Below, in pieces: positions 22,034 through 34,855 of a DNA stretch of 50,731 bases. A program made the position numbers and the translations under genes. The notes under the pieces were generated by a model, which worked only from the letters and a program-made list of their open reading frames with translations, had not been told where the DNA came from and searched no databases. Where the stretch lies: the sequence record PZ445412.1. The stretch is one strand, 5' to 3'. Source of the DNA: a phage. Numbering within the stretch: the stretch's first letter is position 1; each line of letters starts with the position of its first letter.

Positions 22034-22462
22034 ATGCACGTTATCACCGGAGAAATTCGCAAAGAGCCTTTTGTTAAGCAAGGGCAAAACGGCACACTTT
22101 ATATTGTTGAGCTTTCAGAATCATATAAAGATCGAGAAGGTAACAGACAATACACCAATTACAAATTCTTCTTTAATGCAAAAAGCGAGGGAATGAATAA
22201 TTGGTATCGTGAGGCATTCCAGCAGGGTAAAATTATTTCTGTATCTTGCGACCAGTTGCGCATTGATAGCAGCGAATATAACGGGCAGATTTATAACACT
22301 CTAACAAGTGCCGGATTTGCTAACCTGCAATTTAGCCAGCGCGGAGGGCAGCAACAAGCGCCACAGCAGCAAAGCCAGCCACGCCAACAGCAGCAGCCAC
22401 GACAGCAAGCGCCTCAAAATAACGAGCCGCCTATGGATTTTGACGACGATATTCCATTCTAA
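22034..22462 (+). CDS. ssb: single-stranded DNA-binding protein
   Basis: Gln/Pro-rich linker and C-terminal acidic tail MDFDDDIPF, the canonical SSB C-terminus. Confidence 0.85.
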   Translation: MHVITGEIRKEPFVKQGQNGTLYIVELSESYKDREGNRQYTNYKFFFNAKSEGMNNWYREAFQQGKIISVSCDQLRIDSSEYNGQIYNTLTSAGFANLQFSQRGGQQQAPQQQSQPRQQQQPRQQAPQNNEPPMDFDDDIPF

Positions 22463-22467
22463 AAATA

Positions 22468-22490
22468 AAGGGGCTTACGCCCCTTTTTCA
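22468..22490. terminator. bidirectional terminator between convergent ssb and minus-strand block
   Basis: AAA-GGGGC-ttac-GCCCC-TTTTT. Confidence 0.6.
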
Positions 22491-22732
22491 CTTTCTTTGA
22501 TACCCAAAACAGCAATTACCTTAACTGCGATCCGGCTTGCAAGTTCAAGCTGTTGTGCGTTAAGCGTTCCTGTATTCATGATAGACAACAGTCCAGACAT
22601 AGAGCCAAGAGCTTTAAAATCAGTAAAGGCTGATTTCATAATATCCATTTGTTGATGACCACCATTCACAATCGCTTGTGCGCGTTCTGATAGGTCTGCA
22701 ACTACCTTTTCAACACCATCACTTTTCGTCAT
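22475..22732 (-). CDS. hypothetical protein
   Basis: 85-aa ORF, last gene of the minus-strand block; convergent with ssb. Confidence 0.35.
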   Translation of the reverse strand: MTKSDGVEKVVADLSERAQAIVNGGHQQMDIMKSAFTDFKALGSMSGLLSIMNTGTLNAQQLELASRIAVKVIAVLGIKESEKGA

Positions 22733-23216
22733 TTTCTGCTACCTTTTCCGCCTGAGTTGCTTGTTGTGGCATGTTAGGCCACGGGCTAATCGCTTCACGT
22801 TCTGCAACAGGCTTTTCCGGTTCAATCCCTAAAAACTTGCCAACAAACTCACCAACGAAATTAGAGCTATCACTTATATAAACGTGCATCCGATCCAGAT
22901 CTGAGGACGTTACACTATTTGGCGCAATCATGATGCGCTGTTGATGAAAGCCGATATACATCACATTAACAGGGCGCTCAAGTGCCCCAGGGTTTGGGGC
23001 AATAACTCCCATGATCCAACAATAATGGATTTGACCATCGCCTAAAGGCTCACATCCAGCATTTAGCCAGTTCACTTTCTGATGTGGGAACATCATAGAC
23101 GAATCTGTTGCGTCACGCCGTAGCGACCAATTAACGCCACCAATTTCAATATTTGGACGTGGGCGCATACCGTTAAACTGAGTCACACCAGCACCATTCT
23201 GATTCATGTTTTGCAT
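22719..23216 (-). CDS. hypothetical protein
   Basis: 165-aa ORF, co-oriented, overlapping the downstream ORF. Confidence 0.4.
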   Translation of the reverse strand: MQNMNQNGAGVTQFNGMRPRPNIEIGGVNWSLRRDATDSSMMFPHQKVNWLNAGCEPLGDGQIHYCWIMGVIAPNPGALERPVNVMYIGFHQQRIMIAPNSVTSSDLDRMHVYISDSSNFVGEFVGKFLGIEPEKPVAEREAISPWPNMPQQATQAEKVAENDEK

Positions 23217-23230
23217 ATCGGCTTACCTTC

Positions 23231-23578
23231 TTACATTGATTTCATTTTACGCAGAGCGCAAATACACGCGGCGGCAAGATCTGTTAATTCTTTCTCAATG
23301 CCGTGATGCGAGCCATCTGATTTTTCAGTCATTAACTCTTTGTATTCCATTTCAACAATTGACATCATGCCGCCTGGCTTGTCGTGGTACGCTTCCCAAG
23401 TATGCGGAGGGTTTGAAATGCGTTCATGAACATCTGCCATAGCTGAACCATGTTCATGAGTTCGATAATGATAACCATCATGATCTTTTTCCTCATGCGA
23501 GCCAATAACAATGCGCGGTAAATGAATGCGTGGCATTCGATAGCCAGCGATCTTAATATGTGACATAAAAGCCTCCAT
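23231..23578 (-). CDS. hypothetical His-rich protein
   Basis: 115-aa ORF with many His residues (HEEKDHDGYHYRTHEHG...). Confidence 0.4.
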   Translation of the reverse strand: MEAFMSHIKIAGYRMPRIHLPRIVIGSHEEKDHDGYHYRTHEHGSAMADVHERISNPPHTWEAYHDKPGGMMSIVEMEYKELMTEKSDGSHHGIEKELTDLAAACICALRKMKSM

Positions 23579-23609
23579 AGAGAAAAGCGCCCCGAAAGGC
23601 GCTTATTTA

Positions 23610-24320
23610 TTAGCAGCCACAGCAGCCAGTAGGCGGCGTTGGCGGGGTAGGCAGTTTGAAGTTAACCAACTGCTCAACCTGGTTAATTTTGCAATTCAGC
23701 GCGGCGGTTTGATTCGCCTGAGACAGTGCAAAACGAGCCTCTTGCAGTTGCGATTTCATATCGCAAATGAGAACAGCCTGAGAATCAGCGAACTGTTGAC
23801 GCATCAGATCACGCGTTGCGTTGCCCTGGCGTTCAATATTCAGGTTTGTCTCGCAGCAACATCTTTCGGCGGCAAGTTGCGCCTCAAAACTAGCTCGCTG
23901 TTGCTCAAACGACTGAGCACAAATAGCACCAGTAATTGTGTTAGTGCTTTGAGTGATCGCAGTGTTAAGACCTGCAAAGCCCTGGACGGATGCCAAAAGG
24001 TTCTGCGTGTTCTGATTGGTAATGCCGTTAAAAGTTGAAGCGGCGGAGCGTTCAACAGTTAAGTTTGTCGCGTTCTGTCCTTGCAGGGTTTGCAGTCCCA
24101 AGTTGTTGACACCAGTCTGAATGTTATTGATACCATCAAGAACGGCGTTTGCACCAACAGCAACAGCAGCACCATCGCCACCACCATTAAAGCCACGACC
24201 ACCAAAGCCATTGCCGAACCATGAACCAATCAGGCCGCCGACAGCGCCGCCAAGACCAGCCGCACCAGCTTCACCGCCACCAAAACCGCCACCCGTAGGT
24301 AATAGAGTCATATCTGACAT
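23610..24320 (-). CDS. Gly-rich protein with Cys-rich C-terminus (possible fibre-associated protein)
   Basis: N-terminal Gly-rich low complexity, central Gln/Asn-rich region, CCCE motif and C-terminal PTPPTPPTGCCGC; directly downstream of tail fibre gene. Confidence 0.45.
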   Translation of the reverse strand: MSDMTLLPTGGGFGGGEAGAAGLGGAVGGLIGSWFGNGFGGRGFNGGGDGAAVAVGANAVLDGINNIQTGVNNLGLQTLQGQNATNLTVERSAASTFNGITNQNTQNLLASVQGFAGLNTAITQSTNTITGAICAQSFEQQRASFEAQLAAERCCCETNLNIERQGNATRDLMRQQFADSQAVLICDMKSQLQEARFALSQANQTAALNCKINQVEQLVNFKLPTPPTPPTGCCGC

Positions 24321-24439
24321 AATGAATTCCTCTTTGACATTAAAAAATTAAAAATTTAAGTAACATTTTCGTTACGCGGTGGAGTATGCGCCTTATTGGA
24401 TGGAATAGATATGGAAGGATTGTAAAGAATTGGTAAATA

Positions 24440-24464
24440 AAAAAGGGAGGCGTTGCGCCTCCCG
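24440..24464 (-). terminator. rho-independent terminator after tail fibre gene (minus strand)
   Basis: GGGAGGCG-ttg-CGCCTCCC with a T-run on the minus strand. Confidence 0.65.
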
Positions 24465-24469
24465 TTGTA

Positions 24470-26389
24470 TTATGGTAGTTCTGGAATTGTTGTGGCATTA
24501 CCTCCAGCCAATCCAGCAATCATTTCCTTCAATTGTTCAATATCAGCTTTTAAACTTGAAACTTCACTTTCTAACGCTTCATTTTTACCCTGCAACTCTT
24601 GAACAACAACAATAAGATCAGAAATAACGGCGCGATCATTAACGTTCATGATTTCGAATTCATCACCGTTTTCATCTGTTGCAGTTCCGCCAAAGAAAAC
24701 GTAAGTGTCGTCTATTTCAGCCATTTGTTGCGCAAGGTATCCACGCTGCAAAACATGGTTTCCCTTATAATAAAACTCCATAACACCAATCTGTTTAACG
24801 CGATCCCATGCGCCAGGCTTAGGAGGTTCAAATCTATCCTTAATACGAACATCAGATCCCTGAATAGCGCAGCGCCCCTCAGGTGTATAGAATCCATTAT
24901 CGTTTCGCATCGAGTACCATACGACACTACCGCCAAATGTGTTAAAAGACCAAACATATTGATACTGTTGCCCAGGGACACCTGCAACATAGTTTTGAAC
25001 ACCAAACCACGAGTTTTCAACATATGTAAGAAGGTTTGCGCCATCGCTTGATTGTTGAGATTTTTCTTTAATCAAAGCAGCAGTCCACGGGCCTCCCTGA
25101 CCATAATAAGCCTTAGCCCACACCGCATTAAATGTAACATCCTGATCAATTCCAACCCCTAAATTTCGTCTTGCTTGAGCTACATTATCAGCACCAGTAC
25201 CACCTTGCGCAATACCTAGAGCCGACCAACCTTTTAGATAGCGATTGAACATACCCCATGTTCCATCATTCCTTACAGATATCTCTTTTAAACCATCTGG
25301 AGAAAGCATTGACGTGAAAACAGAATCCTGAATTATTCTATCAACTTGCAAATTTATTTTTGCTTGCGTAACGTTTTCAGCACCAGTGCCGCCAGCGCCA
25401 ATAGAAAGTGCCGATGTGCTGTTGTTGTCATTACGTGCAACTCGCCATTCTCCATTGTTAGCGATCCGCAATTCATAAGTCCATGCAGGATTTCTGAAAG
25501 AGTTGTAAGCGCCAGTATCTTGATCTTTTACAGAATTAACCGCCTCAACTTTCAAAGCTTCCCTTGCAAGGTCTTTGTTTGCAAGATCATTAAGGTTTTG
25601 ATCCTTATGCAGCAGATTTTCAGGTTGCACCTGTTGCGCCCATTGGCGAGCTTCATCACGCGCAGTCTCAGCGCCAGCCTTTGCATTATCAGCACCAACC
25701 TTTGATTGCTCTGCGGCGAATTGTGCGTTTTCCGCTTCATCACGCGCGTCTAACGCTTCATTTTTAATTCCGGTTATCTCAGTAACGGCAGAATCTTTAA
25801 TCTGTTGCGTTTGGTTTTTTATTGCGTCCGTGTCTGCCTTAATCTGATTGGTTTCGGCAACAGCGGCATTCTTAATCTGTTGAGTTTCAGAAACAGCGGT
25901 ATCCTTAATCTGTTGCGTTTCAGTAACAGCAGCATCCTTTATTGTTTGCGTGTAGTTTTTTAATTGTTCCGTCGCGGCTCGGTCTGCATCAGTTTTTTGC
26001 GCGGAAGCCTCAGCGCGAGCAACAAGATCCTGTATTGTTTTTAAATCAAAGTTTTTGAAAAATTCAATCGCTTCCTCAATAACAGTTTCTTTACTTTGGT
26101 AATAGCGCAGCGTTTCCGCAACATCTTGCGCCATTCCATCTACCGTTAAAGAGTCATTCAACAGGATCACATAATTTCCGTTTTCTACTGGCTCGCCGTC
26201 AGTCTGGATCGCTTTCATTTCCGTGTCACTTACAATATCGCTAATCACAGCCAATTTAAGAGGCGATGTGAGAAATACGATTGTTGCGCCAGCGCGGATA
26301 AGAGAAAGAGGCTCACGCCATTTTGTGCCAGTACCAGTAATAACGCCTTGCGCGTCCATTGCAGCCGTACCAGTGCGATATAAAGCCAT
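24470..26389 (-). CDS. side tail fibre with C-terminal chaperone-like domain
   Basis: 639 aa; about 11-aa tandem repeats (TQQIKDTAVSE-like); C-terminal coiled-coil tail; own sigma70-like promoter and terminator. Confidence 0.7.
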   Translation of the reverse strand: MALYRTGTAAMDAQGVITGTGTKWREPLSLIRAGATIVFLTSPLKLAVISDIVSDTEMKAIQTDGEPVENGNYVILLNDSLTVDGMAQDVAETLRYYQSKETVIEEAIEFFKNFDLKTIQDLVARAEASAQKTDADRAATEQLKNYTQTIKDAAVTETQQIKDTAVSETQQIKNAAVAETNQIKADTDAIKNQTQQIKDSAVTEITGIKNEALDARDEAENAQFAAEQSKVGADNAKAGAETARDEARQWAQQVQPENLLHKDQNLNDLANKDLAREALKVEAVNSVKDQDTGAYNSFRNPAWTYELRIANNGEWRVARNDNNSTSALSIGAGGTGAENVTQAKINLQVDRIIQDSVFTSMLSPDGLKEISVRNDGTWGMFNRYLKGWSALGIAQGGTGADNVAQARRNLGVGIDQDVTFNAVWAKAYYGQGGPWTAALIKEKSQQSSDGANLLTYVENSWFGVQNYVAGVPGQQYQYVWSFNTFGGSVVWYSMRNDNGFYTPEGRCAIQGSDVRIKDRFEPPKPGAWDRVKQIGVMEFYYKGNHVLQRGYLAQQMAEIDDTYVFFGGTATDENGDEFEIMNVNDRAVISDLIVVVQELQGKNEALESEVSSLKADIEQLKEMIAGLAGGNATTIPELP

Positions 26390-33974: not shown

Positions 33975-34469
33975 ATGGCTATTAAAAAGACAATAGCCGC
34001 TACCATAACGGGCGCGGCTCTAATGATGGCATCGCCCTTGATTGAAGAAATTGAGGGCGTGAGGTATAAGCCTTACAAGGATATTGCAGGAATCTGGACT
34101 GTATGCCACGGCATCACCGGAAAGGATGTGATATTAGGAAAGGAATATACCAGGCGAGAATGTGACGCGCTACTTGCAAAGCATATGAAAGTTGCGGCTG
34201 ACGCTGTTGATAAAGCGGTTAAGGTTGATATTCCTATTTCTATGCGAGCGGCCTTGTACTCATTCACATTCAACGCCGGAACGGGGGCATTCAGGAAATC
34301 AACCATGTTGAAGAAGATCAACAATGGTGATCTGTATGGTGGTTGTGGCGAGCTTTGGAACTGGACATATTACCGGAACCCGAAAACGGGCAAAAAGGAA
34401 AAATCAAAGGGATTGAAGAATCGCCGCGCTGTTGAATATAAATATTGTGTAATGGATCTGAATAAATGA
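33975..34469 (+). CDS. endolysin, lysozyme type with putative SAR N-terminus
   Basis: [23 protein letters not shown] closely matches the catalytic region of P21-type SAR lysozymes; Gly/Ala-rich weak TM at N-terminus. Confidence 0.75.
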
Positions 34470-34855
34470 AAAGAAAATTACTGGCTATTATGATGTGCAT
34501 TGCTCTTTCTGGTTGTTCAGCTTCAAGCGTGTTACCTGGTCTGATTGGTAGCAAGCCTGATATAACGGCACAGGCTGGAGCGGAGAATGTGAAACAGACT
34601 GTTGGTGTAACCGCAAAGCAGGATACATCAAGCAAGCAGAAAACCACATTCAAAGAATCGGCAGTTGGCGAGGTTGACACGTCTAATAAAAAGCAGGTGA
34701 GCACTTCAAGCATTAAGGCAGAAAACATCACAGCGGAAAGAATAGAGATCCGCAATAATGATGGTCTTAATGTTCCGGCAATCGCAATGGGTATATTGAT
34801 GTTTATTGCGGGTATGTTGGCGGGTTGGTCACTGAAACGAAATAAGGCGGCATAA
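34466..34855 (+). CDS. unimolecular spanin (u-spanin)
   Basis: Lipobox LSGC at N-terminus plus C-terminal TM helix; last gene of lysis cassette. Confidence 0.65.

Follow-up and report, generated by a model that had tools for sequence, protein, structure and literature searches.

Downstream of the lateral tail fibre gene of the T1-like Escherichia phage DanielBernoulli (Bas08) lies a gene for a glycine-rich protein of 236 amino acids (aa) with a cysteine-rich end. Does its product belong to the fibre, or to something else? The stretch of DNA analysed here (sequence record PZ445412.1, 50,731 nucleotides (nt); its whole length is referred to as the window) has 100% identity to the full Bas08 genome (MZ501059.1, 50,731 bp; Drexlerviridae, Tempevirinae, Tlsvirus), from which it is offset by a rotation of 536 nt (window coordinate = record coordinate − 536). 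The gene in question, bas08_0030, here called gene A, was deposited as a 'putative sugar-binding protein', a name for which no basis is given in the BASEL paper. A literature search by the protein accession, locus tag and PHROG number of A found nothing, and the papers on KanT1 and P400 contain no statement on the gene. We find that A is the first gene of an operon with its own transcription signals, designated A236-B115-C165-D85, and that this operon is, as judged from its gene order and locations, an autonomous accessory unit of four genes which moves horizontally between unrelated phages. With a probability of roughly one in three (0.35), we propose that protein A, together with its three partners, would form a membrane-seeking, helical, metal- or disulfide-stapled oligomer at the envelope of the infected cell.

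Gene A and its homologues

The only family matched by A was PHROG 9288, annotated as of unknown function; the match (E-value 1.5e-123) spans residues 1–235 of the protein and positions 1–234 of the 234-position profile. A large protein database contained 188 homologues of A, 231 phage records matched it, and a profile search with the A family yielded 113 clusters at 50% identity. A search of 185,579 species-representative genomes of bacteria and archaea revealed no close relative. The ratio of nonsynonymous to synonymous substitution rates (dN/dS) is 0.08–0.22 for the gene overall, 0.07–0.34 for its Gly-rich part and 0–0.31 for the tail, a pattern by which A is a translated gene under purifying selection throughout.

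Both close and distant alignments display a shared family plan, which consists of the N-terminus, a Gly/aromatic-rich stretch in GxxxG register, repeats, a CCC motif and a Pro/Thr-rich tail. The first 60 residues of A include 23 Gly, 9 Ala and 4 Phe, and 36 of the 72 residues at positions 64–135 are Q, N, T or S. The repeats, ∼22 residues long and containing QGFAGLN, vary in number across the family, and the invariant CCC is followed, in this order, by T-R-x-L-I, L-C-D-x-K and S-Q-x-A-Q-T; the motif GSWFGNG is conserved as well. The register (G/A/S)xxxGxxxG, represented in A by G24–G40, is conserved across the homologues: G28 and G32 are invariant in an alignment of 22 distant members and G36 is nearly invariant among the close ones. 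The protein contains nine Cys residues (positions 134, 154–156, 186, 210, 233, 234 and 236), the last three of which are part of the C-terminal sequence PTPPTPPTGCCGC (aa 224–236). Taken together, these features of A are, on comparison of the homologues, more than chance or low-complexity noise.

An initial annotation, made from the letters of the window and its open reading frames (ORFs), had described the product of A by its Gly/Ala/Phe start, Q/N/T-rich part, CCCE and Pro/Thr linker followed by GCCGC. All of these are present in the 236-aa translation, and the gene has proved to be both real and unusual, with homologues across phages and purifying selection over its full length. On the opposite strand, antisense to the Gly-rich codons of A, there is a Pro/Ala-rich ORF of 76 aa (24121–24351, plus strand), which is a mirror artefact of runs of GGN codons and not a gene.

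Distribution and mobility of the operon

Of 39 viral contigs, 35 have the genes in the order A-B-C-D (individual loci are referred to by L numbers where necessary). Besides Bas08, the cassette is found in phages eiAU, CAjan, PJ16, X1 and PY100, and its relatives range from enterobacterial virulent phages through alphaproteobacterial prophage-like regions to low-GC phage contigs. In PY100 and X1 it is located among dam/ssb genes, with unrelated fibre genes ∼26 kb away; the PJ16 copy is inserted between the genes for the large terminase subunit (TerL) and the portal protein. The cassette is absent from T1 and 9g; in T1, a homologous fibre N-terminus abuts the ssb-side neighbour directly. In T1-like or 9g-like phages, gene A does not belong to the core virion genes. 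The T5-like Salmonella phage polluks (L002, 5791–6520) has a pseudogene of A, interrupted by in-frame stops at several points; it follows an intact lateral fibre ORF and is not accompanied by B, C or D. Many other T5-like records contain fragments of A only. Given the locations away from the fibre, the absence from T1 and 9g, the lack of co-variation with the distal fibre (see below) and the decay in polluks, the operon appears to be a dispensable, mobile accessory unit, often placed at the end of the tail module.

Genes A, B and C were identified in the genome of an uncultured member of the Alphaproteobacteria obtained from a metagenome (L058, 5917–7309 of a 258-kb contig). The module is therefore also present in prophage-like regions far outside Enterobacterales. 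The L058 cassette is situated between tail-fibre-like genes and a cluster of holin-like, endolysin and spanin-like genes.

Relation to the lateral tail fibre

The position of A next to the fibre gene had led to the suggestion that its product may be a fibre tip or an assembly factor. As regards a fibre tip or a fibre-specific factor, this suggestion was not upheld: A belongs to an operon of its own, which in some phages occupies sites away from fibre genes, is lacking in T1 and 9g and does not co-vary with the distal fibre, and the fibre is equipped with a chaperone domain of its own. The latter is a C-terminal Peptidase_S74 intramolecular chaperone domain (aa 512–561, E-value 3.2e-5), followed by a coiled-coil-like segment; the mature fibre is therefore probably cleaved near residue 511. 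In Salmonella phage 36 (L018), the products of A to D are 92–99% identical to those of Bas08 and the similarity of the fibres is confined to aa 1–410. Judged on PY100, X1, PJ16, T1 and phage 36, there is neither consistent linkage of A to the distal receptor-binding fibre nor co-variation with it. Searches of Pfam, NCBIfam and PHROG with A and 22 diverse members of its family revealed no match to fibre-assembly families (Caudo_TAP, gp38-like and others). The protein gp24 of Pantoea phage MED16, which was detected in virions by mass spectrometry and is encoded downstream of a fibre gene, was considered as a homologue of A and found to be unrelated.

Transcription signals

Gene A starts 149 nt downstream of the fibre gene on the same strand. 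The initial annotation had placed both in one transcription unit, for which we found no support: a strong intrinsic terminator, a promoter-like box and a 5' hairpin lie between the two genes. In a search against Rfam, only the terminator gave a match, a weak one to sroE. The −10-like hexamer CATACT of Bas08 aligns with TATACT, TAGAAT, TAAATT, CATAAT and AATACT in a set of 17 diverse loci, and in two of the loci (L024 and L028) the hexamer is paired with a good −35 element (TTGTCA, 16-nt spacer, TAGAAT). On this alignment, the Bas08 box is a candidate promoter.

The stem-loop that follows the box was recovered with RNAalifold from an unbiased alignment of the 17 loci, across which box and stem-loop hold their place. 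Its stem is paired in 89% of cells, compared with 78% in shuffled alignments, and its covariation score is 0.468, compared with 0.261; for both measures, none of the 500 shuffles reached the observed value. Controls in which the stem was slid along the alignment gave 21–63% pairing. Compensatory changes were seen in four of the five stem pairs, with the variants GTAAC/GTTAC, GTAGC/GCTAC, GTGGC/GCCAC and CCACC/GGTGG. Judged sequence by sequence against shuffles, the hairpin was not significant (p 0.02–0.9), so its support comes solely from the aligned covariation test. The −10-like box and the stem-loop probably constitute a promoter and a 5'-terminal mRNA hairpin.

A further hairpin directly follows the stop codon of A. 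Of 21 loci, distant ones among them, 19 have an equivalent of the form AGCGCC-loop-GGCGCT behind A (for example, L003, L004, L005, L008, L010 and L017), often with a run of T after it. The hairpin is probably a partial terminator or an mRNA-stabilising element between A and B. This layout of hairpins suggests that the message for A is stable and abundant, that some transcription reads through into the three following genes, and thereby that attenuation or stabilisation after A raises the level of A relative to the other three. At its far end the operon shares a terminator with the convergent ssb gene (22034–22462, plus strand); T1 has the same arrangement of terminator and ssb, except that the place of the operon end is taken directly by the fibre gene.

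N-terminal glycine zipper and predicted structure

An AlphaFold2 model of A, built from an alignment of 33 sequences, consists of a disordered region (aa 1–63) and one helix (aa 64–220). Structure prediction had been proposed as a check on A; the confidence of the model is low (predicted local distance difference test (pLDDT) score of 50), and a search for similar folds with this model would therefore be meaningless. The heptad register over aa 64–135 is weak.

It had also been proposed that A may be a membrane-active virion protein, and the Gly-rich N-terminus does look membrane-active, given its conserved GxxxG zipper. The interfacial partitioning energy of the zipper is −4.7 kcal/mol, which favours the membrane interface. 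In a set of 58 full-length representatives of the family, 10 reach a Kyte-Doolittle mean of at least 1.6 over a stretch at the zipper position, and the flanking charge on the N-side is acidic throughout the family. Neither a Sec or Tat signal nor a lipobox was found in A, and no signal peptide was predicted for any of the four proteins. The best sequence matches of A among solved structures were to regions comprising a fusion peptide plus helix, in influenza HA2 and HEF2 and in coronavirus HR1 (E-values 0.027–0.1). Against class I fusion proteins the family profile reached an E-value of 0.027 at best and the single sequence one of 0.085; neither is significant, and we regard these matches as an architectural analogy, not as homology. 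Credible matches in Pfam, NCBIfam and PADLOC were found for none of A, B, C and D, and PADLOC returned no family at an E-value of 1 or below.

Cysteine residues of A and its partner proteins

The CCC motif, Cys186 and the GxxxG zipper are family-wide, and the terminal GCC(GC) is specific to a subfamily. A comparison of 120 close homologues gave 83 that combine Cys210 with the terminal GCC and 33 that lack the two. In the other four the tail is present and the position of Cys210 was not read by the search pattern, so that none is clearly discordant. Since Cys210 and the C-terminal Cys pair are gained and lost together, the two elements are likely to work together. Such cooperation would be accounted for by a helix from Cys210 to Phe221, from which PTPPTPP would fold back along the helix and bring the terminal Cys beside Cys210. 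In this respect the view that the cysteine tail of A serves metal binding or disulfide formation has gained ground through the co-variation of Cys210 with the C-terminal CC and the poly-His tracts of B homologues, albeit the tail itself is not a family-wide feature. By their pattern of conservation, the Cys residues of A look like a cross-linking or metal site.

Distant relatives of A often have C-terminal tails of other CxC- or CC-rich types, and those with Cys-rich tails tend to carry a true hydrophobic helix at the position of the zipper. Two low-GC metagenomic contigs (L061, 7001–8328; L065, 175–1533) encode distant A relatives with a transmembrane helix and CxC-rich tails. The small partner genes downstream are different there, and one of them (L065, 895–1311) encodes a CCC motif of its own.

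Protein B is His-rich in its N-terminal half and has a conserved C-terminal motif (EMEYxELM ... KELTDLAAAC). Several of its homologues, including those at L005 6564–6923, L048 5581–5961 and L046 5604–5921, contain natural poly-His tracts (such as HHHHHYHHGHH and HIHHHHHH). The L046 homologue approaches the Pfam family MazG (PF03819) over ∼30 residues, with 21.2 bits against a cut-off of 22 and an E-value of 3.7e-4; PF03819 was matched neither by B of Bas08 nor by eight other homologues. The best fold match of C was the Eag chaperone SciW, and no informative match was obtained for D. The features of the locus are collected in Table 1.

Table 1. Features of the A-B-C-D operon and its surroundings in Bas08 (window coordinates; residue numbers for parts of protein A).
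Feature	Position	Strand	Details
Gene A (bas08_0030)	23610..24320	minus	ATG start, 236 aa; from ORF list, PHROG 9288, homologues and dN/dS
Conserved N-terminus of A	MSDMTLLPTGG		Family pattern M-x-D-M-x-L-x-P-x-G-G
Gly/aromatic-rich stretch of A	aa 12–60		Contains the glycine zipper
Glycine zipper of A	G24xxxG28xxxG32xxxG36xxxG40		
Helical repeats of A (predicted)	aa 64–135		Q/N/T-rich, with QGFAGLN
CCC of A	aa 154–156		Invariant; CCCE is aa 154–157
Cys186 of A	aa 186		Invariant, family-wide
Cys210 of A, PTPPTPP linker, GCCGC tail	from aa 210		In this order; Cys210 and terminal GCC(GC) are subfamily features
Gene B (bas08_0029)	23231..23578	minus	115 aa; PHROG 9157; syntenic with A in 35 of 39 loci
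Gene C (bas08_0028)	22719..23216	minus	165 aa; beta-rich; Cys66 invariant, Cys55 nearly invariant
Gene D (bas08_0027)	22475..22732	minus	85 aa, last gene; PHROG 7239; synteny; appears helical
Lateral tail fibre gene	24470..26389	minus	PHROG tail fibre, E-value 3e-194
Intrinsic terminator ending the fibre transcript	24445..24463	minus	8-bp stem, 7 GC pairs, followed by TTTTTTATTT
−10-like hexamer CATACT	24383..24388	minus	Candidate operon promoter; 7 nt upstream of the 5' hairpin
5' stem-loop GTAAC-GAAAAT-GTTAC	24360..24375	minus	5-bp stem; −55 to −40 from the ATG of A
Ribosome-binding site AGAGGA	24328..24333	minus	7 nt before the ATG of A; read from the sequence
GC-rich hairpin with T-rich tail	23585..23604	minus	Directly after the stop codon of A; terminator scan
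Bidirectional terminator closing the operon	22467..22486	both	Terminator-like hairpins
u-Spanin gene	34466–34855		

A possible role at the cell envelope

In the mechanism that we favour, A would be produced in larger amounts than its three partners and would be an elongated, probably oligomeric alpha-helical protein. The zipper at its N-terminus may behave as a fusion peptide or a weak membrane anchor and thus associate with the inner membrane. Since no Sec or Tat signal is present and the hydrophobicity of the zipper falls short of a signal-anchor, the C-terminal rod of ∼190 residues most likely stays on the cytoplasmic side. The chains could be tied to one another through a shared metal by CCC and Cys186 and, in the subfamily of Bas08, also by Cys210 and the C-terminal CC, which would be returned to it by the PTPPTPP linker; after lysis, disulfides between the Cys residues of A would be possible. 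The His-rich, MazG-like B is a candidate metal donor or partner, and the beta-rich C a candidate holder of the hydrophobic N-terminus of A. As for the role, which is the weakest step, we think of an accessory function at the level of the envelope, such as exclusion of superinfecting phages or control of membrane integrity or lysis, but not of host recognition.

Several observations weigh against this mechanism. The operon follows a fibre gene with a shared N-terminal domain in 22 of the 39 loci, which would fit a virion role, and the structure model of A is of low confidence. The zipper falls below transmembrane thresholds (the maximal 19-residue Kyte-Doolittle mean is 1.13 and the predicted insertion energy +5.2 kcal/mol). 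Furthermore, the matches to fusion proteins may reflect composition only, and no good −35 element was found in Bas08, where this element is poor.

If A were instead a virion-associated accessory of the fibre, either a coiled-coil whisker or collar akin to T4 fibritin or a general trimerisation chaperone akin to T4 gp57A, which would aid the assembly or deployment of lateral fibres with B to D as adaptors, one could readily understand why the operon directly follows the lateral fibre gene in Drexlerviridae, Seuratvirus/Nonagvirus (CAjan), eiAU and the alphaproteobacterial metagenome genome, and why T5-like phages have a remnant of A at the same place. The long predicted helix would suit a fibrous rod, the bracketing hairpins suggest high expression as in structural genes, the loss of a whisker from T1 could be harmless, and one depositor labelled the PJ16 homologue 'lateral tail fiber chaperone'. 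We nevertheless consider this explanation unlikely. The fibre genes of PY100 and X1 are unrelated and ∼26 kb away from the operon, with no homologue of the Bas08 fibre found in PY100; the PJ16 operon sits between the TerL and portal genes; T1 retains the homologous fibre N-terminus without the operon; and the polluks fibre ORF is intact beside a dead copy of A. To these are added the lack of co-variation with the distal fibre, the S74 chaperone domain of the fibre itself and the absence of a tail-assembly match in Pfam or PHROG. Alternatively, the proteins might form a metal- or redox-dependent complex in the cytoplasm, with no role at the membrane; it might act in counter-defence or host takeover, with B as a MazG-like nucleotide hydrolase and A as a Cys-cluster scaffold. 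Conserved Cys residues are indeed present in A (CCC, Cys186), B (AAAC, and CxC in many homologues) and C (Cys55, Cys66), poly-His tracts and a near-threshold MazG match occur among the B homologues, A to D are devoid of signal peptides, and the patchy accessory distribution is typical of counter-defence genes. On the other hand, A to D match nothing in PADLOC, Pfam or NCBIfam, the MazG-like match is limited to ∼30 residues of one homologue, and the invariant GxxxG zipper together with the true transmembrane helices of distant relatives argues for a link to the membrane, which makes this explanation, too, a doubtful one.

Should A act at the envelope only late in infection, it might be an extra lysis or membrane-fusion factor, spanin-like or associated with holin. 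Holin-like, endolysin and spanin-like genes come after the cassette in L058, and holin-like genes precede it in L010; the fusion-peptide-like N-terminus and long helix would fit, and the Cys residues and Pro-rich tail recall Rz/Rz1, the disulfide-linked, proline-rich spanin pair of phage lambda. This is quite improbable, however, as Bas08 already possesses a holin, an endolysin and a u-spanin ∼10 kb away, A shows no similarity to this u-spanin (hhalign probability of 0.2%) and has neither a lipobox nor a strong transmembrane domain, and there is no route for the rod into the periplasm. The initial annotation had also noted a resemblance to microcins, from which it is a short step to a bacteriocin-, microcin- or colicin-like protein that is released at lysis and threads its disordered N-terminus through an outer-membrane protein of neighbouring cells. 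Colicins combine translocation and receptor domains, an architecture not unlike the Gly-rich, low-charge N-terminus and long helix of A, and class II microcins have C-terminal Cys; the conserved GSWFGNG motif might be taken in the same sense. Beyond the Gly-richness, low charge and Cys near the C-terminus, the resemblance fails: no leader consensus, cytotoxic domain, immunity gene, ABC exporter or C39 peptidase was found in A or nearby, B, C and D have no transporter domains, 236 aa are too many for a microcin, and the benefit to a virulent phage is not obvious. A double-glycine leader was rejected on both length and consensus, given that the GG of MSDMTLLPTGG comes after only 11 residues and such leaders comprise 15–24. 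We hold this last explanation to be very improbable indeed. As leads only, we mention that the N-terminus of A might be a TonB-box or TolB-box, that its 22-residue repeats might form a curli-like amyloid and not helices, and that the protein as a whole might follow the head-rod-tail design of intermediate filaments.

The operon is open to direct tests, because Bas08 is one of the phages of the BASEL collection, which is in wide use, and has E. coli K-12 as a host. The cassette is present in many Drexlerviridae, Queuovirinae, Nonanavirus, eiAU-like and PY100-like phages, several of which are candidates for therapy or biocontrol, and its existing annotations ('putative sugar-binding protein', 'lateral tail fiber chaperone') are conflicting guesses. 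Establishing the role of the zipper/Cys-cluster protein and its poly-His partner could add a new accessory function and would at least correct tail-fibre annotations. More speculatively, and with lower confidence than we have in the oligomer itself, A-B-C-D might be an unrecognised and widespread phage system, in which an abundant protein with a fusion-peptide-like zipper and a long helix, stapled by metal-thiolates or disulfides and loaded with the aid of a poly-His partner, would form new membrane-active envelope machinery for exclusion, entry aid or remodelling. It should be borne in mind that most phage protein families are equally uncharacterised and that newness here means only that no characterised family is matched.

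Comparison with known systems

Protein A has no characterised relative; of the groups with which it was compared, it agrees with PHROG 9288 and with the glycine-zipper pattern only, and no new mechanism is demonstrated. Fibre assembly proteins and chaperones, such as lambda Tfa (Caudo_TAP), T4 gp38 and gp57A, are likewise often encoded just downstream of a fibre gene, and gp57A is a small helical oligomer. In contrast to these, A has no sequence match to them, does not co-vary with the fibre tip, is found away from fibre genes in some phages and is missing in T1. Spanins (lambda Rz/Rz1 and the u-spanin of the T1 gp11 type) might resemble A in being helical phage envelope proteins tied by Cys, with a proline-rich segment in Rz1; unlike them, A lacks a lipobox or strong transmembrane domain, shows no homology to the u-spanin of Bas08 and is encoded outside the lysis cassette. 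In the class I fusion subunits (influenza HA2, HEF2 of influenza C and D, coronavirus HR1), a Gly-rich, aromatic, amphipathic segment leads directly into a long Q/N/A/L-rich helix, and Cys-rich C-terminal ends occur in the tails of spike and HA. The composition, GxxxG register, interfacial energy and predicted helix of A would be compatible with a fusion peptide that precedes a coiled coil; the heptad register is weak. However, the signal peptide, C-terminal transmembrane anchor, receptor-binding partner and cleavage site of these proteins have no counterparts in A. With glycine-zipper segments of the SlyB/17-kDa-antigen type, A has in common the GxxxGxxxGxxxGxxxG register of G24–G40. Finally, the prePAAR effectors of type VI secretion, with their transmembrane domains and Eag chaperones, offer a parallel for two members of the operon, in that the register of A invites comparison with those domains and the neighbouring protein C has its best fold match in SciW.

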